Part shown: positions 4,205 to 20,649 of the stretch, piece after piece
Numbering within the stretch: the stretch's first letter is position 1
How the letters are laid out: every line of letters begins with the position of its first letter
Origin: Candidatus Woesearchaeota archaeon
GTDB taxonomy: Archaea > Nanobdellota > Nanobdellia > Pacearchaeales > GW2011-AR1
Length of the DNA: 35,511 nucleotides
Assembly (NCBI GenBank): GCA_964366925.1
Contig: CAYIVX010000003.1
Span: 1 to 35,511, forward strand
Reading direction: 5' to 3'
Position numbers and translations under genes: made by a program
Notes under the pieces: generated by a model
Told to the model about the DNA's origin: nothing
The model's database searches: none
Seen by the model: the letters and a program-made list of their open reading frames with translations, nothing else

Positions 4205-5371
4205 ATGGCAAATGAAACAGTAAAAGGGTTTGGAGATTATGTTGGAATAGAAGCTGTGCGAAGACAGCGAATAAAAGGCATACTTGCAAATATATTCAAA
4301 ACCTATGGTTTTGAATTAAGTGAGACGCCAATAATCGAATTTGAAGAATTTGTTCGTGGAGATAATGCTAATGATGAAGCTGTTTCTGATGTTTTCAGAT
4401 TGGAAGATAAGGGTAAAAGAAAACTGGCCTTGCGTTATGAATTTACTTTTCAATTAAAAAGAATTGCTAGCAATAAAAAACTTCCTTTTAAAAGATATCA
4501 GATTGGGGAAGTTTTTAGAGACGAGCCTACTACTGGGAATAGGTTTAGGCAATTTACACAATGTGATGTGGATATTGTTGGGAGTACTATTAAAGAAGAA
4601 GCAGAGATTCTTGCTGTAGCTTCTGAAATAATGAAAGAATTGGGAATAAAGGCATCTATTTATGTTAACAATAGAAAACTTCTTAATGAAATTATGGAAG
4701 AACAGAAGATAGCTGAAAAACTCAGAAAAGATGTTATTCGTGAAGTCGATAAATTAGATAAACTTTCTGAATCGGATGTAAGGAATAATTTGAAAAAATA
4801 TAAAGCTGAAAAAATTCTAGAGATTTTTAGCAAACCAGAAAAATATTTTGAAAAATATAAATCTTACGGAGAAGTAAAAGAGTTAGAAGAATATTGTAAA
4901 ATGTATGGTGTTAAAATTAATTTTCAACCTAGTTTAGCTCGCGGATTGAGTTATTATAATGGCAGTGTTTTTGAAGTTAAAACAAATGAAATGAAAGAAA
5001 CAATTTGTGGTGGTGGAAGTTATATGGTTAATGGAATACAAGCTTCTGGAATTAGTTTTGGATTAGAAAGATTATATCAGCTTGCAAAAGTAACTATTGA
5101 CGATAGAAAAGTTTTAATTATTTCTATCGGCAAGGATAAAGAAACATTAAAATTTGCTAGTGATTTACGAGAAAAAGGCATTGCCTGTATTGTTCTTTAT
5201 GGAAAGGTTTCAAAAGCATTGGATTATGCTAATTCCTACGGAATACCCTATGCAGTTTTTGTTGGTGAAGATGAAGTAAAGAAAAAGAAATTTTTATTAA
5301 AAAATATGAAAACAGGAAAAGAAGATTTATTAAGTTCTGAACAAATTATAAATAAGCTCTGTCAGTCTTAA
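4205..5371 (+). CDS. hisS: histidine--tRNA ligase (class II)
   Basis: FRDEPTTGNRFRQFTQCDVDIVG (motif 2), CGGGSY and GISFGLERL (motif 3), and a C-terminal anticodon-binding domain. ATG at 4205 is preferred over the TTG at 4199. Confidence 0.9.
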   Translation: MANETVKGFGDYVGIEAVRRQRIKGILANIFKTYGFELSETPIIEFEEFVRGDNANDEAVSDVFRLEDKGKRKLALRYEFTFQLKRIASNKKLPFKRYQIGEVFRDEPTTGNRFRQFTQCDVDIVGSTIKEEAEILAVASEIMKELGIKASIYVNNRKLLNEIMEEQKIAEKLRKDVIREVDKLDKLSESDVRNNLKKYKAEKILEIFSKPEKYFEKYKSYGEVKELEEYCKMYGVKINFQPSLARGLSYYNGSVFEVKTNEMKETICGGGSYMVNGIQASGISFGLERLYQLAKVTIDDRKVLIISIGKDKETLKFASDLREKGIACIVLYGKVSKALDYANSYGIPYAVFVGEDEVKKKKFLLKNMKTGKEDLLSSEQIINKLCQS

Positions 5372-7831: not shown

Positions 7832-9456
7832 ACGATAGACAACCAGTATATATAACTCCAGAAAATGTGCAGAGAACTCTTGGACGGGATGCACAACGAA
7901 ATAATATTCTTGCTGCGAAGATAGTTGCAGAGACTGTTAAAACTACTCTAGGACCTAAGGGAATGGACAAGATGCTTGTTGATGCTACTGGAAATATTAT
8001 TATTACTAATGATGGTGTAACTATTCTTCAAGAAATGGAAATAGAACATCCTGCTGCAAAAATGCTTGTTGATATTGCAAAGACTCAAGAAAATGAAGTT
8101 GGAGATGGGACGACTACGGCGGTTATGCTTGCTGGAAAATTTCTTGAAAATGCAGAAAAACTTTTGGATATGAAAATCCATCCTACTGTAATAATTAAAG
8201 GATATAAACTGGCTGCAAAAGAAGCTGAAAGAATTATCAAAGAAGAAACTTCGGTTAATTCTGAAAATGTTAGCGATGTAGTATTACGGTATGTTGCAAT
8301 GACTGCAATGACTGGAAAGGGAGCAGAAAATGATAAAGAAAAACTTGCAGATATTGTTGTAAAAGCCGTAAGAAGAGTAATGGATGGTAAAATTATTAAT
8401 CTTGATGATATAAAAATAGAAAAAAGCAAGGGCGGGGCTATTGAAGATTCTAAATTAATTGAAGGGATTGTTTTGGACAAGGAAAGAGTTTCGATGGATA
8501 TGCCTACAAATATTAATGATGCGAGAATTGCACTTATTGATTTTTCTCTTGAATCTAGAAATCCCGAAGGTGATGCTAAAATTTCTATAAATTCTCCAGA
8601 ACAACTACAGGGTTTTATTGATAGAGAAGAAAGAGTAATTCGAGAGATGACTGAAAAAGTAGTTTCAAGTGGAGCTAATGTTTTACTTTGCCAAAAGGGA
8701 ATTGATGATGTTGCACAATATTTTTTAGCTAGAGCCGGAATTTATGCTTGCAGAAGAATAGCTAAAAGTGATATGGAAAGATTGGCTCGGGCAACAGGAG
8801 CTCATATTATCAGCAGTTTAAATGATTTAACTGCTCTTGAATTAGGAAAAGCAAAGATTGTAAAAGAAGTTATTAATGGTGAAAATGAAAAAATGACTTA
8901 TGTTGAGGGTTGTGATAATCCTAAAAGTGTTTCAATATTAATTAGGGGTGGAACGAGCCATGTTATTGATGAAATAGAACGGGCAATAAAAGATGGGCTC
9001 GGAGATATTGCTAGTGTTGTAAAAAGCGGGAGTATAGTTGCGGGTGCTGGTGCTATTGAAATCGAATTATCTAAGAAATTAAGAGAATTTGCTAATCGAC
9101 TTAATGGCAGAGAACGACTTGCTGTTGAAGAATTTGCAAGAGCTTTGGAATGCATTCCCTCTGCCTTGGCTGAAAATGCTGGACTAGATCCTATTGATAT
9201 AGTTACTGAACTTAAATCTCAACATGATAAGGTCGAGAAATATTCGGGAATAAATTTGCTAACTAATAAAATAGAGAATGTTTTAGAAGCAGGAATAATT
9301 GAGCCTGCTAAAAATAAACTTCAGGCAATAAGCTCTGCTTCAGAAGTTGCTAATATGATTTTAAGAATTGATGATGTTCTTGCTGCTAATACTAAACCTC
9401 GAAATTCTGGCGGATTGGGAAATCTTGGGGCTAAAGATTTTTCTGGTGAGATGTAA
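7828..9456 (+). CDS. ths: thermosome subunit (group II chaperonin, Cpn60/TCP-1 family)
   Basis: [36 protein letters not shown] and a C-terminal GG-rich tail. 542 aa. Confidence 0.93.
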
Positions 9457-10311: not shown

Positions 10312-11022
10312 TTAATCCATAAGCCCCAACATTTTTCTTTCTTTATCAACCATTATTTCAAGTTGCTCTGTTGTTATTCCTGGTATGATTATTACTGGAA
10401 AGGCTTTTATCCATGCTGTTTCCTTGGGAAGAAGCCAGCCGGGTTCTTTATTTCGTGGTTTTAGTTTATTATAATCTACTCTCATAAATCCAAAAAAGGG
10501 TTCTTGTTTTTTGGCTTCGGCAAGTAACAATTTTGAAATTTCTTCATCCCTAAGCATTTTCATATAAGCCAGTTCGCTGGGAAACATATGTTTTCCTTGC
10601 TTTCCAAAATAAGGTGCAACTCTTGGACCAATTCTTCTATTGAATCTTACAATTTCTGCTCGAACTTTATCTGAAAAGGGACGAGCTATGCTTCTTGAAA
10701 TATCCTCTTCTATTTTTGAAGAAATAATAACACCGCGTGGATAAATTTCTAAATCTGCTACAGGTGTGGGTCGTCTTATTTCATAGGATTGCATATATTC
10801 CTTAGGGAAATCGCAGGGTTTTTTATGTGTTGATAAAATTAATCCGCCAGATGGATTTGCTGGAATTGGTAATGAAATAAAAAAATCATAGAATTTTTTT
10901 TTGTCAAGTACGGGGCTTTGATGTTCTATTTTTTCAATTGCTAAACGATAATAAAATTGATTAACTGTCGCTTCTGCTAACTTTTCAGCAGTTTCTTTAT
11001 CCATATATTGTGGATTTTTCAT
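10312..11022 (-). CDS. hypothetical protein (236 aa)
   Basis: Long ATG ORF. No family recognised. Confidence 0.5.
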   Translation of the reverse strand: MKNPQYMDKETAEKLAEATVNQFYYRLAIEKIEHQSPVLDKKKFYDFFISLPIPANPSGGLILSTHKKPCDFPKEYMQSYEIRRPTPVADLEIYPRGVIISSKIEEDISRSIARPFSDKVRAEIVRFNRRIGPRVAPYFGKQGKHMFPSELAYMKMLRDEEISKLLLAEAKKQEPFFGFMRVDYNKLKPRNKEPGWLLPKETAWIKAFPVIIIPGITTEQLEIMVDKERKMLGLMD

Positions 11023-11123: not shown

Positions 11124-11405
11124 ATGGAAATGGTAAATCAATCAAATATAGGCAGTAATTCTAGTATACCTAGTTGCAGCACCTATGCTCCTCCTCTTGC
11201 TAGGTCGTTTTATTGGATAATTGATAGTTGTCATAGTCTTGTAAGTTATGTAGCCCCTATATCTGAACAAGAACACAGGGAAGATTTAGATAGGTTGGCA
11301 CGAAAAGTTAAAGCACAAGAAGATAGACCAAAATCTCCTAATTTCTTAGATACTATTTTAGATGCAGTTTTAGATAAAGCTGAACAGGCTGCAAGAAGAA
11401 ATTAA
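11124..11405 (+). CDS. hypothetical small protein (93 aa)
   Basis: ATG ORF. Visibly less AT-rich and less Lys/Ile-rich than the neighbours. Confidence 0.35.
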   Translation: MEMVNQSNIGSNSSIPSCSTYAPPLARSFYWIIDSCHSLVSYVAPISEQEHREDLDRLARKVKAQEDRPKSPNFLDTILDAVLDKAEQAARRN

Positions 11406-13185: not shown

Positions 13186-13569
13186 TTATTCTTCATCTAT
13201 TCTAATCTCTTCAAAAGTGTAAAGCCTTCTTTTTCCAGCTATTGGCCTGTCAGAAAGTCTTACTGAAATTTTTTCAATCTTTCTTTGCCAGTAGGAATAT
13301 GCAGTATTAGTACCATTTTGAACAATATAAATATCTTCTCTTTTTTCAACTTCAAGAGGTAAACCCAAATCTGAAAATGCTAACTCGTCTATTACTCTTT
13401 GCTCAACATCTCTTCTCAAATCAAATCTAGGGTCTCTCCATTCAGGACCCCATTTTGATTGCAGATGTTCAATCCATTGCTTTGCTTCAACAGTAGGCCT
13501 TTTAACATAGTTCTGTAAAAATCTAAGTGAATCTAGATTTATACATATTGGTTCTTGTTGTTTATCCAT
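13186..13569 (-). CDS. hypothetical protein (127 aa)
   Basis: ATG ORF. DIYIVQNGTNTAYSYWQRKIEKISVRL loosely parallels the core of ORF 11854-12297. Confidence 0.4.
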   Translation of the reverse strand: MDKQQEPICINLDSLRFLQNYVKRPTVEAKQWIEHLQSKWGPEWRDPRFDLRRDVEQRVIDELAFSDLGLPLEVEKREDIYIVQNGTNTAYSYWQRKIEKISVRLSDRPIAGKRRLYTFEEIRIDEE

Positions 13570-13647: not shown

Positions 13648-13718
13648 TGGGTGCTGGAGGAATCGGACCTCCGTCATCTCGGTGTAAACGAGAGGGTCTA
13701 CCATTAGCCTAAGCACCC
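13648..13718 (-). tRNA. tRNA-Val (anticodon TAC)
   Basis: Minus-strand cloverleaf: GGGTGCT/TA/GGCT-AATGGTA-GACC/C/TCTCG-TTTACAC-CGAGA/TGAC/GGAGG-TCCGATT-CCTCC/AGCACCC/A. TATA-like TTTTATAAA lies about 26 nt upstream. Oddities: C12-A23 mismatch and C at T-loop position 55. Confidence 0.7.
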
Positions 13719-14248: not shown

Positions 14249-14256
14249 TTTAAATA
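14249..14256 (+). promoter_or_regulatory. TATA box (TTTAAATA) about 27 nt upstream of the tRNA-Gly 5' half
   Basis: Exact archaeal TATA consensus. Spacing to 14283 fits a transcription start at or just before tRNA position 1. Confidence 0.5.
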
Positions 14257-14282: not shown

Positions 14283-14319
14283 GCGCTGCTAGTATATCGG
14301 TTAGTACGTCTCGTTGCCA
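14283..14319 (+). tRNA. 5' half (positions 1-37) of a second tRNA-Gly(GCC); split or disrupted gene
   Basis: GCGCTGC/TA/GTAT-ATCGGTTA-GTAC/G/TCTCG/TTGCCA. The acceptor 5' strand, D-arm with GG, anticodon-stem 5' strand and U33-GCC-A37 are all present. No matching 3' strand within the next 3 kb. Confidence 0.6.
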
Positions 14320-14396
14320 AAGCGTCCCCCCACATGATGGACGCGTGGTTAACAGGATGGTCTAATCAATAAACTAGAAAAGCGCAATCATAATAT

Positions 14397-14467
14397 GCGA
14401 AGTTAGTTTATCGGTAGAACTTCTGGTTGCCAATCAGAAAAGCCGGGTTCAATTCCCGGACTTCGCA
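14397..14467 (+). tRNA. tRNA-Gly (anticodon GCC), intact
   Basis: GCGAAGT/TA/GTTT-ATCGGTA-GAAC/T/TCTGG-TTGCCAA-TCAGA/AAAG/CCGGG-TTCAATT-CCCGG/ACTTCGC/A. Followed by a T-run. Confidence 0.9.
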
Positions 14468-14480
14468 TTTTTTATTTTTT
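14468..14480 (+). terminator. oligo-T tract directly after tRNA-Gly
   Basis: TTTTTTATTTTTT. Archaeal RNA polymerase terminates at oligo-T. Confidence 0.4.
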
Positions 14481-15191
14481 AGCAGACTTCCATAAAGATT
14501 CAAAATATTTTCTATAACTTTCTGCAACAGATTTACTTTCTATTAAAATAACAGATATCTTCTCATCGAATATTTGTATTGAAACTATATTCCCAAAAAT
14601 CATAGTAGATGAGGGGGTTATTTCTCCGATATACCTTACATCAAAATTTTTTAATTTTGTGAATAATTTTTCTCTTAATTTTTCTGCAGTGATTATTTTT
14701 CCTTTTATATGTTTAATACCTGTTTCTTTAGCAATACGAGGCATCTCGTACTTTAGGACTTCGTAACTTTTTCCCGTTCCCCCATAAACGCAAATATCTT
14801 TTTCTTTATTATCGAAAAGCATTCTTATCAGAGTTCTTAGCCCTTCTTTTCCTTCTAGTACTCTAACGACAGAAGGTTCTTTTTTTACCTGTTCTAATTC
14901 AAGTAATCCTGGAAGAATATCCTTAATTATAGTTTCTTTCTTTTGCACTTGATTCAAGAGATTTTTTGGAGAGGTAGATCTAAATAACTTTTTATTATTT
15001 TCCAAGATGTGAGTAGCTAACCCTTTATTGATTAGATTGTTTAATAGATTATAAGTATGGGTTCGGTCCATATTAAGCAATTTAGCAAGTTCTCCTCCAC
15101 TAATTGGACTATTTTTTAGAAGGGCAATATAAACTTCTGATTCTTTATTACTTAATCCTATCTCGCTTAATTTTTCTTTCAATTGTTCCAT
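14472..15191 (-). CDS. TrmB-family transcriptional regulator
   Basis: The N-terminus LSEIGLSNKESEVYIALLKNSPISGGELAKLLNMDRTHTYNLLNNLINKGLA is a typical TrmB wHTH. 239 aa with a C-terminal effector-like domain. Confidence 0.75.
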   Translation of the reverse strand: MEQLKEKLSEIGLSNKESEVYIALLKNSPISGGELAKLLNMDRTHTYNLLNNLINKGLATHILENNKKLFRSTSPKNLLNQVQKKETIIKDILPGLLELEQVKKEPSVVRVLEGKEGLRTLIRMLFDNKEKDICVYGGTGKSYEVLKYEMPRIAKETGIKHIKGKIITAEKLREKLFTKLKNFDVRYIGEITPSSTMIFGNIVSIQIFDEKISVILIESKSVAESYRKYFESLWKSAKK

Positions 15192-15301
15192 AAATTTACT
15201 AATGAAATGTCCTTTATAAAGTTGTTGTTTTTAGTTACAACAAATGTTTAAAAGAGCTCTAGGACTATCGAATAGTAATTAAAAACAATGGAAATAATAA
15301 A

Positions 15302-15583
15302 ATGAAATATAAACAACTCTTTAGAAGAATGTCAGTAATAGACTTAGGAGTAATACTAACAAAAGACCAAGAAGCTTCAGAAAAAGCATTTAGGTATTAT
15401 GGTCTTGTTCAGCGATTATGCCCTCCTGAGAAAATCTGCGATATAAATTTTAGGGAAAGAACAGAAGTTCCAGCATACCTAATTGGAATAGCTAGAGAAG
15501 CTTATGATGCTTATAATGTCGCTCTTAAAAGAGAAAAGAAAAGACAGGAGACTGATTTTGATGATCCTAGGTGGAATAAATAA
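15302..15583 (+). CDS. hypothetical small protein (93 aa)
   Basis: First of three tightly packed same-strand ORFs. No family recognised. Confidence 0.4.
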   Translation: MKYKQLFRRMSVIDLGVILTKDQEASEKAFRYYGLVQRLCPPEKICDINFRERTEVPAYLIGIAREAYDAYNVALKREKKRQETDFDDPRWNK

Positions 15584-15584
15584 A

Positions 15585-15977
15585 ATGAAAACAAAACAAT
15601 TAACACAACAGAAAATTATTGGAAAAGAGATAACTTTAACCATAAGACCCACAGCCATTAATCCAAATAACTATGACATTTATATTCAAACCAGAATTCA
15701 AAAATATTGGCTACTCCAGTGCTGCAGTTCTACAACAAGAAGTCAGTATACAGAGGGTGCAACATTAGAAGAAGCAAGAATACTCTATGAGTCATTACAA
15801 ACCGAAGACGATTTGTATCGAATTATGGGACAACCTACTGATTACGAATCAGAGCTAGGAGATAGATTAGTCAAGGCAGGCGATAAAGATGGATTAGATA
15901 GATTAGCCTTAGAAGTTGAAAAATGTCAAGCTCCTTTTAAAGAAATAGGTAAAAAATTCTTTAGTGGATTTGATTGA
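15585..15977 (+). CDS. hypothetical protein (130 aa from the ATG at 15585)
   Basis: The ATG lies 1 nt after the stop of the previous ORF. The longer track ORF (15504) would overlap the upstream gene. Confidence 0.4.
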   Translation: MKTKQLTQQKIIGKEITLTIRPTAINPNNYDIYIQTRIQKYWLLQCCSSTTRSQYTEGATLEEARILYESLQTEDDLYRIMGQPTDYESELGDRLVKAGDKDGLDRLALEVEKCQAPFKEIGKKFFSGFD

Positions 15978-15988
15978 AGATTAACAAA

Positions 15989-16714
15989 ATGACAACACAA
16001 AATGTAAAAGAGCTAGTAGAAGGTAATAAACCTTCAGTTATAAAAATTGTAGATGAGTCAGTAAAAAATGAAATTGTCATATTCAAGGGTTGCTATGGTG
16101 AGGCAGAGAATTGCCTATTCTGTAATGGATGTAGAGTTGCCTATGCGGAGGAAGTTGCTAAAGCGAGAATAGAACAAGGAGAGGGTGCAGACATATCCAC
16201 ATCTCACGGATGGACACGAGAGGGACTTATTTATCTTCCAAGAGAACACGATGTTTTTTTGACAAAGAATCCTCCGAGATTGGGAAAAAGTTGGCAATGT
16301 GATGAACAGTCCGTTATGCGATATCAATTAGAAGGGTCATTAGTGAGTGCGGTAAAAGTTAGGAATACTTCCATTCCTACAAACCGATTTGGGGAAGAAG
16401 AATTAACTCGTTATCTATTTGGAAAGAATGCCCAAGAATATGGAAATTTTATAAAAGAAGCCGGAATAGGGCAGATGCATATAGACTTGATGAGACATTA
16501 TTTAAGACCCGAAAAACCTTTTGCAACCTTATTAGAATTTGGAGCAGTTTTAGATCCTAATGCCGTACCCTTATTTCAGAATCATTCCTCATGGATTTTT
16601 GGAGAAAGTAAACCGGATTATTTTTTGGAAGGCAAGACATTTGGTGTCCCATTACCAAATAGAAACTTAATTGCCCATCTTAACCAGAATTATTTAGGCT
16701 TTATAGAAGAATAA
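15989..16714 (+). CDS. hypothetical protein (about 241 aa; Cys cluster CYGEAENCLFCNGC)
   Basis: First ATG in the ORF 15974-16714. Visibly less AT-rich than housekeeping neighbours. No family recognised. Confidence 0.45.
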   Translation: MTTQNVKELVEGNKPSVIKIVDESVKNEIVIFKGCYGEAENCLFCNGCRVAYAEEVAKARIEQGEGADISTSHGWTREGLIYLPREHDVFLTKNPPRLGKSWQCDEQSVMRYQLEGSLVSAVKVRNTSIPTNRFGEEELTRYLFGKNAQEYGNFIKEAGIGQMHIDLMRHYLRPEKPFATLLEFGAVLDPNAVPLFQNHSSWIFGESKPDYFLEGKTFGVPLPNRNLIAHLNQNYLGFIEE

Positions 16715-16788
16715 TAATAACTCCCTTACTAGAATTGTATGTCTGGAGTGCTTTTGCAAAAAAGTAACTTAGGGGAGTACTCATTTAC

Positions 16789-16824
16789 ACTTACATGACT
16801 GAGGTTCGACTCCTAGTAAGTTGA
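16789..16824 (+). other. tRNA 3'-half-like fragment (T-arm plus acceptor 3' strand) with no recognisable complete cloverleaf
   Basis: TGAGG-TTCGACT-CCTAG (one G-A mismatch) followed by TAAGTTG-A. Upstream TAACTTA (16765-16771) could pair with the acceptor strand, but only 28 nt lie between and no D or anticodon arm folds. Confidence 0.35.
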
Positions 16825-16863
16825 TATCTTTTCTACTATGATTATGTTTATAAATTAAAATTA

Positions 16864-17289
16864 ATGATACTTCTTATGACAGAACAAAAAATTCCTGCAA
16901 AATTGCAGAGGCTTCTTGATTACGGAACAATGAAAGACGAAAAAGAGCCGAGAGAATACAAATTTTATGATTTTGAAGGAAAAGAAAAAACAGCACATTT
17001 AAGCGGTGATGATATCCTTGCTGAAAAATTAAGATGCCCTAGAGACGGCGTAAGAATCGCCAATTATTCAGGAGACCCCCATAGAGTTTCTGAATGTCCT
17101 AATTGTGGATATTCTCCTTCTCATAGCAACCCCTATTCAAGAGAAAAAGATTTGGCAGATCTCGCTGAAAGAATAAAAACTGCCGAAGCAGAACTTGCAA
17201 AAATTAAGGCTACAAGGCAAGTTGTTCAAAATCAAAGCCATCCAGTAGTTAGAGCTAATTTAAGAGATGACGCAATGTTTGATAGTTAA
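16864..17289 (+). CDS. hypothetical zinc-ribbon protein with a C-terminal coiled coil (141 aa)
   Basis: RCPRDG ... ECPNCG is a CPxx...CPxC pair. No family recognised. Confidence 0.4.
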   Translation: MILLMTEQKIPAKLQRLLDYGTMKDEKEPREYKFYDFEGKEKTAHLSGDDILAEKLRCPRDGVRIANYSGDPHRVSECPNCGYSPSHSNPYSREKDLADLAERIKTAEAELAKIKATRQVVQNQSHPVVRANLRDDAMFDS

Positions 17290-17538
17290 TCTCTAAAGAG
17301 CATTTGATATTCTAAAAAAACTAATTGAAGAGAATAAAAATCCCCTTTTCTTAATATACTTTTAACGAGATAGTCCCCAGTACACCTCGTAATCTCCAAG
17401 ATAATCAACTACCATCACGCCGCGAATACGAAATAGTCTATGCTGACGAGAGGTTTATCATCTACCATGGATTGCCAATAACCTTTCTTCTTTAGAAAAG
17501 AAGAAACCTTAACGGTAGAAGAAACTTAGTTAGCAAGA

Positions 17539-17573
17539 ACGAGGAGAGCCGCGTTCAATTCGCGGGCGGCGCA
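17539..17573 (+). tRNA. 3' half (positions 38-73) of the split tRNA-Gly(GCC)
   Basis: A/CGAGG/AGAG/CCGCG-TTCAATT-CGCGG/GCGGCGC/A. Canonical T-arm. The acceptor 3' strand pairs 7/7 (one G-U) with GCGCTGC at 14283. CGAGG pairs 5/5 (one G-U) with TCTCG at 14309. Confidence 0.6.
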
Positions 17574-17615
17574 TAATTGAACTTTAGCAAAGATTAAGAT
17601 AAAAATTATTCCGAA

Positions 17616-17972
17616 CTAATTATAAACCAATATGTCTGTTTTTGGCACTTTATGACCTAAATCTAAAGTTAAAGGGATAGGAATATTAACAATTTGACCT
17701 TCTCGTTTAAATGTCATCATAAGCAAAACAAGAACGTTATTTGTTTTATAATTTACGGACATTTTAATGTTCTGAACTTGGTTTAAGAATTCTTTAGCTA
17801 TTCCTAAATTTTCACTAGCATCCATTATTTCTATTCCACAAATTAGATTATCCGAACTTACATCAAGAATAAAATCGCCTACATCTAAAGAAGATTTTAC
17901 TTTTTCTCCATTTGATAAGAACAATATATCATTGTCCAAATCGTAGTCTATTGTTTTAATTGTTTTTGCCAT
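17616..17972 (-). CDS. DUF2283-family protein (putative antitoxin partner)
   Basis: IDYDLDNDILFLSNG ... DFILDVSSDNLICGIEIMDAS matches the DUF2283 pattern (yD.e.D.lyi ... G.ivGiEil.as). Confidence 0.6.
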   Translation of the reverse strand: MAKTIKTIDYDLDNDILFLSNGEKVKSSLDVGDFILDVSSDNLICGIEIMDASENLGIAKEFLNQVQNIKMSVNYKTNNVLVLLMMTFKREGQIVNIPIPLTLDLGHKVPKTDILVYN

Positions 17973-18256
17973 TTCTTATTACTATTCCAAGCACTTATTA
18001 CTTTTAAACCTTTTGAAATATCAATTTCAATTATCACAACTAAGGAGTATTTGCCACTCATTTTAAACCAAAGTTTGAATCTATTCTCTACTTTGCCTTG
18101 CTCGATTTTCTCTAATCTGCTCAATTGTGATAGAAAACTTCTTATCATTCCCTCTTTTAGGGGTCTTTCTTGACTCCTTTTATAAAAATGTGAATCAAAG
18201 ATTATACTATCTTGATTTAAATTTTCAAGAAAAATCTTAACTTCTTTTAGTTCCAT
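17948..18256 (-). CDS. DUF4258-like small protein (putative toxin partner)
   Basis: DSHFYKRSQERPLKEGMI resembles the DUF4258 H-x3-R-x2-eR motif. Overlaps the downstream DUF2283 gene by 25 nt. Confidence 0.45.
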   Translation of the reverse strand: MELKEVKIFLENLNQDSIIFDSHFYKRSQERPLKEGMIRSFLSQLSRLEKIEQGKVENRFKLWFKMSGKYSLVVIIEIDISKGLKVISAWNSNKKWQKQLKQ

Positions 18257-18360
18257 CTATCTCCCCAATTATAACTAGCTTACATGTTTAAATCTTTTTC
18301 GGATAATAAAGTAAGAAACCCAATTTGACAGTACATCTGACTTCATTATATAATCTCGGT

Positions 18361-18376
18361 TGCGGACAGTGCATAA
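18361..18376 (+). repeat. 16-nt direct repeat TGCGGACAGTGCATAA (copy 1)
   Basis: 15/16 identical to 19684-19699. The two copies bracket ORF 18421-18654 and fic. Confidence 0.5.
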
Positions 18377-18420
18377 TACTACTGAATCTTAATAAAATAT
18401 ATAAACATCAAATTTGTGAT

Positions 18421-18654
18421 ATGTTTATGGTAAATTCTATCTTAGAAAAATATGGGCATATTGGGCAGCAAGTTACTAGTCTAGAAGAATTTCGTAGAGC
18501 AAGATATATTGGTTTAAATTTAGATATAGATGATTCAAGAATAGATGAATCATCTAGAATAATATCTCCTCCAGATTTAGAAAGATTTGAAGCAGAAGAT
18601 ATGCAATTCTCAAGACAGCTAAGAGAAGCTTCAGAATTGGCTGCAGACTTATAG
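18421..18654 (+). CDS. hypothetical small protein (about 77 aa from the internal ATG)
   Basis: The track ORF starts at a TTG (18325). An ATG at 18421 follows an AT-rich TATA-like stretch. Confidence 0.35.
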   Translation: MFMVNSILEKYGHIGQQVTSLEEFRRARYIGLNLDIDDSRIDESSRIISPPDLERFEAEDMQFSRQLREASELAADL

Positions 18655-18717
18655 CTTATTATTTTAAATTATAGGTAGGCGGTGCATTTTTTATTTTTAG
18701 TAGAATTCCAAAGAAAA

Positions 18718-19620
18718 TTAGAATCTTAAATTCTGTTCCTGCAAAAGTGCAAACAAGAATTTTAACATTGGCTCAAGATTTCCTTCAATCTGGGCTTCTT
18801 GCAAGCAATCATAATATTTTGTTTTCTTTGAGTTTGGTATGTTTATCATTGGAAATCCATTTTTATGAAGTATAAAGTTCATCAATAACCTTCCAGTTCT
18901 GCCGTTTCCATCAACGAAAGGATGAATTGTTTCAAAAGCAACATGAAAATAAGAAGCCAAGATTAGTGGATGTAGACTCTTTTTATTTCTTGAATACCAA
19001 TTTAGCAAATTGCTAATTTCTGCCGGGACTTCTTCTGGTTTAGGGGGCATCCAATTAGTTCCTTTAATATAAACTTGAAGTGTTCTGTAAATGCCTGTTT
19101 GATTTGCGAGATGTGGTTTTAATGTATCCTTAACTACAAGTTCATGCAATTTCAGGATTAACTCTTTAGTTATCTCTCCCTTATAGCTGAGTATGTAATC
19201 AAATGCTTTCTTATGGTTCAATATTTCATTTATTTCTCTTAAAGATTTTGCAGAAGGTGCTCTATTTTCAAATAAAAGACTAGCAGTTTCTTGCAGGGAG
19301 ATTGTATTTCCTTCTATGGCTGTGGAATCATAAGTAAACAGAGAACAAAATGCCTCATATCTATTCTCAAATGTTTCTTTAGGTTCTTTCTTATAATCTT
19401 GTTTTATTTTGGCTAACTTTTTTATTTCTTCTTTGTCAAGAAGATAATTTAATGCGACAAGCTTCTCATCCGCTTTCTGTTCGAATTCTTTAATTTTATT
19501 TTTTTCCAAGTCTACTCCCAAGTATACTCTTTGTTTGCTTATCTTATCCTTGTTCCTTATAGATTTAACACGATAATAATACTTTCTTCCATTAATCTCT
19601 TTTATTTCAGTATATACCAT
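18718..19620 (-). CDS. fic: Fic/DOC-family protein (putative AMPylase)
   Basis: HPFVDGNGRTGRLLMN matches the Fic motif HxFx(D/E)GNGRxxR. Confidence 0.85.
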   Translation of the reverse strand: MVYTEIKEINGRKYYYRVKSIRNKDKISKQRVYLGVDLEKNKIKEFEQKADEKLVALNYLLDKEEIKKLAKIKQDYKKEPKETFENRYEAFCSLFTYDSTAIEGNTISLQETASLLFENRAPSAKSLREINEILNHKKAFDYILSYKGEITKELILKLHELVVKDTLKPHLANQTGIYRTLQVYIKGTNWMPPKPEEVPAEISNLLNWYSRNKKSLHPLILASYFHVAFETIHPFVDGNGRTGRLLMNFILHKNGFPMINIPNSKKTKYYDCLQEAQIEGNLEPMLKFLFALLQEQNLRF

Positions 19621-19627
19621 AATAATA

Positions 19628-19671
19628 TTACGGCTACATCATTTATAAATGTTTCTAAGATGTAGCCGTAA
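19628..19671 (-). promoter_or_regulatory. perfect 13-bp inverted repeat bracketing a TATA-like box directly upstream of fic
   Basis: TTACGGCTACATC (19628-19640) and GATGTAGCCGTAA (19659-19671). The 18-nt spacer reads TTTATAAAT on the minus strand. The arm ends 8 nt from the fic ATG. Confidence 0.6.
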
Positions 19672-19683
19672 GAATAGATTATG

Positions 19684-19699
19684 TGCGGACGGTGCATAA
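19684..19699 (+). repeat. 16-nt direct repeat TGCGGACGGTGCATAA (copy 2)
   Basis: See 18361-18376. A degenerate GGCGGTGCAT also occurs at 18678-18687. Confidence 0.5.
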
Positions 19700-20229: not shown

Positions 20230-20649
20230 ATGATGAAAAGAATAACTGCGGCAATACCTTATGAAGCTTACTGGAAAAGCAATTCTAGAGGGGGTTATAT
20301 CTATGAGATTCTTAGCACTACAAAGCAAGAAGTAAATCCAACAAAAGATTATATCTCCAGTGTTCTGGTTCTTAATATGCGAACCGGAAAAGAGAAAGTT
20401 CTTAGACCTGAAGATTTTAAAGATATGATTCGACTTCCAAGAAATGAAGCTAAGGAAATTTACTGTGCAAAATATGGCTCAAGAAGAGCATTTAGAGAGA
20501 TGACTTGCTCCTACGAAGAAAAGCAGTATATTCAAGAAAAAACTAAATTGGTACACCAATTTATAAGAGATACAAAGAAGATTGAAAATGCTGTAAATGA
20601 TGTTCTTGCAATTACTAGAAAATTCACTAAAAGATATAGGGGAATTTAG
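20230..20649 (+). CDS. hypothetical protein (139 aa)
   Basis: ATG ORF. No family recognised. Confidence 0.4.
   Translation: MMKRITAAIPYEAYWKSNSRGGYIYEILSTTKQEVNPTKDYISSVLVLNMRTGKEKVLRPEDFKDMIRLPRNEAKEIYCAKYGSRRAFREMTCSYEEKQYIQEKTKLVHQFIRDTKKIENAVNDVLAITRKFTKRYRGI

Follow-up and report, generated by a model that had tools for sequence, protein, structure and literature searches.

A tRNA-Gly(GCC) gene of the archaeal contig CAYIVX010000003.1 lies in two pieces about 3.2 kb apart, and the DNA between them carries a second, intact tRNA-Gly(GCC) gene. The locus raises the question of whether the two pieces make up a split tRNA joined by trans-splicing or are the remains of one gene into which foreign DNA has been inserted. 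A stretch of 35,511 nt of this contig, with an average GC-content of about 31%, was analysed and is referred to here as the window; the locus occupies positions 14283-17573. A preliminary description had offered both answers: a functional trans-spliced tRNA, broken exactly between positions 37 and 38 with the geometry of a bulge-helix-bulge (BHB) splice motif, or a tRNA-Gly gene with an intron into which about 3.2 kb of DNA had moved, together with a tRNA-Gly(GCC) of its own. The second answer was essentially right, and a 7-bp direct repeat at the borders and a recurrent link to one integrase family can now be added to it. We read the two halves as the attachment sites attL and attR of an integration that did not restore its target and was compensated by a tRNA carried on the element, and assign this reading a probability of about 0.82.

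The pieces of 37 nt (14283-14319) and 35 nt (17539-17573) do join, as proposed, into a 72-nt tRNA-Gly(gcc) recognised by ARAGORN. Its acceptor stem pairs 7/7 and its anticodon stem 5/5, with one U-G pair in each, all stems are intact, and its GC-content is 59.7% versus about 31% for the window. In the raw window, ARAGORN and Rfam find three tRNAs in total, namely His, Val and the one intact tRNA-Gly(GCC) at 14397-14467, which had also been described correctly and differs in sequence from the joined tRNA. A scan of a genome collection with the 3′ half returned one contig, L001, from a Nanoarchaeota metagenome-assembled genome of the Hainich groundwater well H43. Its tRNA-Gly is uninterrupted, is equal to the joined window halves at 72/72 positions and scores 52.9 bits against RF00005 (gathering score 29), a score that holds for the identical joined sequence. 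The two contigs are syntenic (Dus, tRNA-Val, cupin gene, TTTAAATA promoter, tRNA-Gly, Zn-ribbon gene), with a nucleotide identity of 76-88% in the flanks. The TATA box reported before the 5′ piece is thus conserved. Comparison with relatives had been set in advance as a test of a split gene, and the uninterrupted gene of L001 at the same locus speaks against one.

A metagenome scan with tRNA nucleotides 11-37 yielded 19 loci. The tRNA-Gly gene has no intron in eight distinct loci (L001, L007, L008, L011, L014-L016 and L019), and nine loci carry an intron of 14, 15, 23, 24, 54, 55 or 63 nt at 37/38. The tenth intron-bearing locus, L010, is a 5′-truncated copy with a 111-nt intron; all ten introns end in GCA(A/G)NN. 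Acceptor stems covary among the genes of the relatives (GCGCTGC/GCGGCGC, GCGACCA/TGGTCGC and GCGGCCA/TGGCCGC), and the intact genes of L001, L011, L013, L018 and L032 begin with exactly the 5′ exon of the window. The L010 fragment lacks nucleotides 1-10 and, judged by its sequence, cannot function, yet it is as identical to functional copies as the window exons are. Hence, the perfect exons of the window are uninformative with respect to function.

The comparison with L010 also defines the right-hand border. The 3′ exon begins at 17539, as described earlier, but the right-hand piece extends further upstream, to 17472: it opens with a second anticodon-loop copy, TTGCCA, and a 61-nt intron comes next. 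L010 reads TTGCCA/ATAACCTTTCTTCTTTAGA...GTTAGCAAGA/ACGAGG, the anticodon loop running straight into the 111-nt intron and then into the 3′ exon, and over the 102 aligned positions of window 17472-17573 there is no mismatch to L010 (102/102), the single difference being a 50-nt indel within the intron. The right piece thus consists of loop, intron and 3′ exon as in L010, and TTGCCAA is therefore a 7-bp direct repeat on both sides of an insert of 3151 nt. This core covers tRNA positions 32-37 plus the first intron base. Because of the repeat, the break is placed by the sequence within the anticodon loop and not demonstrably at 37/38, the dinucleotide AA being found at both break positions; of the exact break described earlier, the location in the loop stands.

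The BHB motif also belongs to the gene as it was before the insertion. Direct inspection shows that TTGC (17472-75) pairs in cis with GCAA (17533-36), leaving bulges CAA and GAA, and that an adjacent h′ helix of TAAC (17479-82) with GTTA (17529-32) completes a canonical hBHBh′ motif; the left core copy has no h′ partner. The minimum free energy fold recovers h and h′ and misses the 4-bp H helix, and ARAGORN recognises the reconstructed pre-insertion allele as an intron-containing tRNA-Gly. The TTGC/GCAA pairing on which the trans-splicing geometry had been built therefore exists, but GCAA is the normal 3′ end of a cis intron and has its better partner in cis. Two features of attachment sites are present: the core stands at both borders of the insert in the same orientation, and L001 provides the empty site. 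Neither junction encodes a tRNA, and the target is not regenerated.

The same break recurs beside one family of integrases. In L006, from a different project, two intron-less tRNA-Gly exons lie 7.4 kb apart on one strand, and each border carries TTGCCAA. Just inside the right one, a gene encodes a tyrosine recombinase of 412 aa (PF00589, 51 bits), and the insert holds an intact, intron-bearing tRNA-Gly(GCC). The L006 integrase has 68 homologues with E <= 1e-10, the named ones labelled Nanoarchaeota, and ten genomic contexts of these homologues were examined. In L031, L033, L038, L039 and L040, whose integrases are 58-82% identical to that of L006, the 5′ or 3′ part of a tRNA-Gly(GCC) is broken exactly at TTGCCAA and the integrase adjoins it. 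The partner halves were not found within these five contig sequences, so that L006 is the only one of the six other loci delimited at both ends. Including the window, the same TTGCCAA of the same tRNA species is affected in seven loci, and a tyrosine integrase is adjacent in six of the seven.

The element arm next to the right core of the window, CATCTACCATGGA, is equal at 10/13 positions to the L006/L031 arm CGTCTATCGTGGA; a match of this quality at a fixed position has a probability of about 6e-4 by our own binomial estimate, which is not the output of a tool. The arm of L031, GTCCTCGTCTATCGTGGA followed by TTGCCAA, is nearly identical to that of L006, and the arms of L040 and L039 end in ..GGTGGA and ..CGTTGA, respectively. 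L040 also contains an attP-like site, x-TTGCCAA-y, with no tRNA sequence on either side. On this contig of 8.7 kb, cores at 1674, 2726 and 6682 belong to two different broken tRNA-Gly(GCC) 5′ halves and the attP-like site, and the y arm of the latter differs from the arm after the first half by one mismatch in 40 nt. The arrangement looks like tandem or nested elements, in which a replacement tRNA was possibly itself disrupted when a later element arrived.

An intact second tRNA-Gly(GCC) is present in 4/4 loci where both ends or at least 8 kb of the element are available, namely the window, L006, L033 and L038; in L038 it sits among TrbC and type IV secretion system (T4SS) pilin genes. As tRNA isoacceptors in such genomes are normally single-copy, this coincidence is very unlikely to be due to chance. 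The insert-borne tRNA of the window is unlike the host copy in sequence, yet it has the same G1-C72, C2-G71, G3-C70 and A73. More distant members of the integrase family sit behind intact tRNA-Gly(GCC) genes (L034 and L035). In L035, 12 nt of the tRNA 3′ end recur at a distance of 10.5 kb, a marginal match (blast E = 0.15); in L034 no displaced tRNA fragment was found, and its restoring layout is read from gene order alone. The family thus seems to have both restoring and non-restoring members.

Two side observations concern the targets of this family. Upstream of the L036 integrase (at 8756), one of the more distant family members with 46% identity, a 3′ part of a broken tRNA-Val(TAC) at about 8620-8755 reads ...CTCG/TTTACAC/CGAGC...GGGCCA; ARAGORN makes no call for it, and the family may also target tRNA-Val. 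In L006 at 5097-5232 (-), as well as in L005 and L009, introns begin with T rather than A, so that the DNA core becomes TTGCCAT. A T-initial intron could shield the L006-borne tRNA from the integrase of its own element.

The history of the locus is in part shown by the sequences. A single ordinary tRNA-Gly(GCC) gene, with a BHB intron of 61 nt at 37/38, stood at the ancestral locus, and a mobile element entered the anticodon-loop DNA at the exon-1/intron boundary, leaving TTGCCAA on both sides. Since the element shares only these 7 bp with its target, neither junction rebuilds a tRNA and the host gene is inactivated; the complete tRNA-Gly(GCC) that the insert brings differs in sequence but has the same identity elements. 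The remaining steps are inferred. The recombinase would have been a tyrosine integrase from the family that adjoins like junctions in six other DPANN loci, the integrase of the window copy having presumably been lost or acting in trans. The insert-borne tRNA would take over the decoding of GGC and GGU, and at least some of its expression would come from transcripts reading through from the host promoter that the insert has captured. That promoter lies 140 nt upstream of the insert-borne tRNA with no oligo-T run between them, and TTTTTTATTTTTT follows directly 3′ of this tRNA. Almost all tRNA genes in these genomes have a TATA-like box 22-31 nt upstream, scoring 6-8/8. The features of the locus and its surroundings are collected in Table 1.

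Table 1. Positions of the interrupted tRNA-Gly(GCC) gene, the insert and the adjoining islands in the window.
Feature	Position	Strand	Remarks
TATA box TTTAAATA of the disrupted host tRNA-Gly(GCC)	14249-14256	+	26 nt before position 1; kept in L001
Host tRNA-Gly(GCC) 5′ exon, positions 1-37	14283-14319	+	Host side of attL
Left core copy TTGCCAA (anticodon loop)	14314-14320	+	Alignment with L001 stops here
Inverted degenerate tRNA-Gly-like sequence	14321-14385	-	Adjoins the left core; long hairpin with the orphan 5′ exon
Intact insert-borne tRNA-Gly(GCC), presumed replacement	14397-14467	+	ARAGORN; Rfam 63.4 bits; 77 nt from the left core
Secondary junction, 3′ end of the insert-borne tRNA	14462-14510	+	L028 diverges; flank homologous to 18684-18728
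TrmB-family helix-turn-helix (HTH) regulator, 239 aa, cargo	14472-15191	-	PF01978, E = 1.7e-13; NCBIfam TrmB and Lrs14-like matches
Four cargo open reading frames (ORFs; 15302-15583, 15504-15977, 15974-16714, 16864-17289)	15302-17289	+	
Element arm adjoining the right core, CATCTACCATGGA	17459-17471	+	10/13 equal to the L006/L031 arm CGTCTATCGTGGA
Right core copy TTGCCAA	17472-17478	+	Continuous with intron and 3′ exon, as in L010
Native host tRNA-Gly intron, 61 nt	17478-17538	+	Canonical hBHBh′ at 37/38
Host tRNA-Gly(GCC) 3′ exon, positions 38-73	17539-17573	+	
Downstream island 1: DUF2283 protein and two ORFs	17574-18686		Ends in degenerate tRNA 3′-end copy GGCGGTGCA (18678-86)
Downstream island 2: Fic-domain protein (PF02661, 83.5 bits)	18687-19696		Ends in degenerate copy GACGGTGCA (19688-96)
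Reconstructed empty-site junction, ...GTCTCG-TTGCCAA-TAACCTTTC			
Expected circular/attP junction, ...CTACCATGGA-TTGCCAA-AGCGTCCCC			

Several points weigh against a compensated, non-restoring integration. No integrase was found in the 35.5-kb window by tblastn, and no PF00589 domain among the insert ORFs by Pfam. Beyond the 13 nt mentioned above, the arms of the window show no significant similarity to the arms of elements that carry an integrase, so the place of the window in the family is argued from the identical target, the identical core and the short arm match. The intact tRNA-Gly(GCC) lies inside the element in the window, L006 and L038, and nearby in L033. The best TATA match of the insert-borne tRNA is only 5/8, and we infer both its function and its expression from sequence. 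Finally, this reading gives no explanation for the 76-nt inverted tRNA-like spacer beside the left core.

The reverse complement of that spacer aligns end to end with tRNA-Gly (score 31 versus 16 ± 3.2 for shuffled sequences, 0/500), and the RNA of 14283-14396 folds into one hairpin of about 100 nt (-45.9 kcal/mol, z = -6.4). Both hairpins noted in the preliminary description, one at each piece, exist. The long hairpin of 5′ exon and spacer was not seen in L006 or L033 and hence is not a feature of the family. The spacer could be the relic of an integrase-mediated inversion, or it could serve as a signal for sequestration or processing at the RNA level.

Among the other explanations, the one that fares best is still improbable: a transposon or another insertion without integrase, with TTGCCAA as the target-site duplication, or the capture of foreign DNA during break repair in the anticodon-loop DNA. 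Staggered-cut transposition also leaves a 7-bp direct repeat, the insert carries no integrase, and insertion sequence (IS) transposases occur near the locus in relatives such as L010. However, the insert has neither terminal inverted repeats nor a transposase, the supposed duplication is TTGCCAA of one and the same tRNA species at all seven loci, a tyrosine integrase being adjacent at six, and the core-proximal arm of the window is shared with the integrase-bearing elements.

Split tRNA genes are known from Nanoarchaeum equitans and Caldivirga maquilingensis, and a GC-rich complementary trailer and leader join the halves of the Nanoarchaeum type. In genes of this type, each half has its own promoter, the split state is conserved and there is no continuous isoacceptor gene. 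The window locus resembles them in a break beside the anticodon, intact exons and a BHB that can be drawn. A functional split tRNA would have its pieces transcribed apart, annealed by their stems, cut at a trans BHB and ligated. Both exons are indeed intact and equal to functional orthologues at 72/72 positions, the 5′ piece retains its promoter (TTTAAATA at -34 to -27), and TTGC at 14314-17 can pair with GCAA at 17533-36 to leave 3-nt bulges and cleavage at 37/38; a transcript start is possible for the 3′ piece, and tRNA halves can anneal via their stems. Exon identity loses its weight with the equally identical, dead L010 fragment, and GCAA can pair in cis next to a complete h′ helix, whereas the left TTGC copy has no such helix. 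The lack of long trailer/leader complementarity, already remarked on, holds: the duplex of trailer 14320-14396 and leader 17380-17538 reaches -26.4 kcal/mol versus -26.5 ± 4.0 for shuffled sequences, 47% of which are as good, and cofolding the two gains only -1.6 kcal/mol. The hairpin with the spacer (z = -6.4) would lock in and sequester the 5′ exon. For the 3′ piece, the sole TATA-like 8-mer (7/8) lies 114 nt upstream, at a background of 4.5 per kb.

In contrast to the known split genes, both window pieces are on one strand at a distance of 3.2 kb, a 7-bp repeat flanks them and there is no leader/trailer helix; relatives have continuous genes, so that the split state is not conserved, and the intact tRNA-Gly(GCC) between the halves removes the need for a split gene. 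With a continuous gene in relatives, no complementarity, an intact tRNA in between and a BHB that belongs to a cis intron, the functional trans-spliced tRNA of the preliminary description is given up as highly improbable. A variant has a slim chance, slightly less slim than that: a split gene caught at its birth, in which the promoter-bearing 5′ exon and the 3′ piece with its splice motif are joined into a working tRNA-Gly.

A giant 3.2-kb intron spliced in cis, or a mobile intron with a homing endonuclease, removed at the BHB, has next to no likelihood. The insert does sit at the canonical intron site, with a BHB that can be drawn and a LAGLIDADG-type ORF beside a tRNA gene in a relative; against this stand 17 sense-strand oligo-T runs of at least 5 between the pieces, including TTTTTTATTTTTT after the internal tRNA, an antisense gene and an intact tRNA within the insert, and the lack of an endonuclease domain in Pfam, PHROGs and NCBIfam searches of the insert. 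A 7-bp duplication and a separate native intron of 61 nt are not expected of an intron, and ARAGORN, allowing introns of up to 4 kb, makes no call for the split gene. Equally negligible is an assembly chimera of reads from two strains at a repeated tRNA sequence: strains do co-occur at the site (L028 diverges at 14462, and the relative with the intact gene comes from the same well), but three independent assemblies match window positions 14768-18461 at 100% across the right junction, L028 confirms the left one, independent assemblies from that site reproduce both junctions at an identity of 99.75-100%, and L006 shows the same architecture in a different project.

The insert itself looks like a remnant and a mosaic. 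L028, an independent assembly of a co-occurring strain, is identical to the window over the cupin gene, the left junction and the insert-borne tRNA as far as 14461 and then continues into wholly different DNA from within the 3′ acceptor strand of the insert-borne tRNA, which results in an A5.C68 mismatch. The divergent DNA of L028 (1203-1702, versus window 14462 onward) encodes a 113-aa ORF without a match. The pattern resembles a nested integration with the replacement tRNA as its target. In addition, the flank at 14465-14510 is homologous to the flank of the repeat at 18678-86 (score 41 versus 16.5 ± 2.6 for shuffled sequences). Given the L028 divergence and the homology to 18684-18728, the part of the insert on the TrmB side probably came in a second event, a classical integration that used the 3′ end of the insert-borne tRNA; a repeat of this 3′ end delimiting the presumed second element was sought inside the insert and not found.

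Both downstream islands are absent from L001, and the DUF2283 protein of island 1 has a small partner ORF upstream. Similar tRNA 3′-end remnants, CGGGCGGCGCA and CTGGCGGCGCA, occur in L010 at about 620-720. By their sequence, the islands behind tRNA-Gly represent serial classical integrations at one tRNA.

The four plus-strand cargo ORFs have no match in Pfam, PHROGs or NCBIfam. For the largest, of 246 aa, a search of 5.8 billion proteins yields only three homologues, all distant, and its AlphaFold model, based on a four-sequence alignment, is unusable (pLDDT 33). No viral hallmark genes were found among the cargo with Pfam and PHROGs. A scan of viral contigs with the arm and core motif gave three chance matches on contigs of 40-50% GC with no tRNA or integrase nearby, and a scan with the insert-borne tRNA gave none. 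Elsewhere in the window, the ORFs 10312-11022 (-), 11124-11405 (+), 13186-13569 (-), 18325-18654 (+) and 20230-20649 (+) are by eye rich in R, Q, E and W and resemble the plus-strand ORFs of the insert, unlike their K/I/N-rich neighbours. Those at 10312-11022, 18325-18654 and 20230-20649 were compared with Pfam and have no match. The region of these ORFs may hold more foreign DNA.

Further differences between the relatives lie outside tRNA-Gly. The syntenic tRNA-Val(TAC) genes of the window (13648-13718, -) and L001 (2302-2374, +) have wholly different sequences, with 56% versus 47% GC. Just beyond the L001 gene, a fragment at L001rc 1396-1360 (...CTAATGGTTAGAAGCGAATCCAGCACCCA) resembles the D-loop and 3′ end of the window-type tRNA-Val, which suggests that in some lineages mobile DNA has also replaced tRNA-Val. 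L001 further encodes, in the interval from tRNA-Val to the cupin gene, a 322-aa ORF (1330-2298, +) with two LAGLIDADG-like motifs (PF14528, E = 3.7e-6), which is absent from the window and may be a free-standing homing endonuclease beside the replaced tRNA gene. A motif GAATTTTCAATTCCGGA(A/G)... is found 3′ of tRNA-Gly in three otherwise divergent loci, L011, L019 and L032 (reverse complement), and may represent a small RNA or regulatory element.

Integration of mobile elements into tRNA genes is textbook knowledge. Its non-restoring form, compensated by a tRNA carried on the element, was shown experimentally in 2024 in actinobacteriophages as tRNA-dependent lysogeny, in Fionnbharth and subcluster K4, cluster L and Gaia (Guerrero-Bustamante & Hatfull 2024, PMC10865867). 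The mycobacteriophages Boilgate and Fionnbharth, restoring and non-restoring, respectively, have related integrases (PMC10865867). In the archaeal loci as in these phages, integration of the tyrosine-integrase type targets a tRNA gene, the common core is short (7 bp, compared with 8-10 bp in the phages), neither junction rebuilds a functional tRNA and the element has a complete tRNA of the same isotype and anticodon. Restoring relatives also exist on both sides, Boilgate versus Fionnbharth there and L035 and, by gene order, L034 versus L006 here. The differences are the DPANN host, a core that is exactly the anticodon loop and a target that may contain a BHB intron, so that one scar keeps a complete splice motif. 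Moreover, the window copy is a mosaic without integrase, and the element, whose cargo has no viral hallmark genes, need not be a virus. The insert is best read as an archaeal analogue of actinobacteriophage tRNA-dependent lysogeny, and its tRNA may be required by the host.

In archaea, a review of tyrosine recombinases of 2021 describes integrations that restore the tRNA gene and does not mention DPANN (PMC8371274). A 7-bp anticodon loop between the two arms of its palindromic stem has the layout, overlap region plus core sites, that is classical for tyrosine recombinases, and the overlap region of SSV1 is the anticodon loop (PMC8371274). The locus also shares with SSV1, pNOB8-type elements, pTN3, pT26-2 and SNJ2 a tRNA gene as attB, direct-repeat borders and serial integrations at one tRNA (PMC8371274); the islands behind the 3′ exon of the window follow this classical pattern. 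The classical elements share tens of bp with their target and restore an uninterrupted gene (PMC8371274), whereas here only 7 bp are shared and the gene is destroyed.

Another archaeal parallel is the tRNA-Thr(GGU) locus of Caldiarchaeum subterraneum, a restoring, pNOB8-like integration from which introns and split genes were proposed to arise (Sugahara et al. 2012, PMC3293823). It has an orphan 5′ fragment upstream of the insert, an intact tRNA with the same anticodon beyond it and a heterogeneous population; in contrast to the window, where no tRNA is reconstituted and a separate one is supplied, its long direct repeat reconstitutes the tRNA (PMC3293823). Among the first 15 of 23 listed papers that mention tRNA-dependent lysogeny, none deals with archaea by its title and abstract, within a literature collection of incomplete coverage.

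The analysis removes a false positive: a “split” tRNA with a textbook BHB can be two attachment-site scars in an intron-containing gene. If, improbable as that is, a split gene has been caught at its birth here, it would represent the long-proposed step from mobile-element integration to a trans-spliced gene, with the element-borne tRNA easing selection while the split gene arises. The seven loci are natural material for the idea that mobile elements make tRNA fragments and split genes. They also bear on the old idea that introns at 37/38 alter the target of integrases, the TTGCCAT of L006 being a possible example. Taken together, the sequences suggest that DPANN archaea host integrative elements that destroy their tRNA target and bring a replacement. 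This strategy is known from actinobacteriophages and, within the literature searched, such target-destroying, tRNA-replacing integration would be new for archaea. If genomes of about 1 Mb have single-copy tRNAs, the element would be addictive, and its loss would mean the loss of the only tRNA-Gly(GCC).

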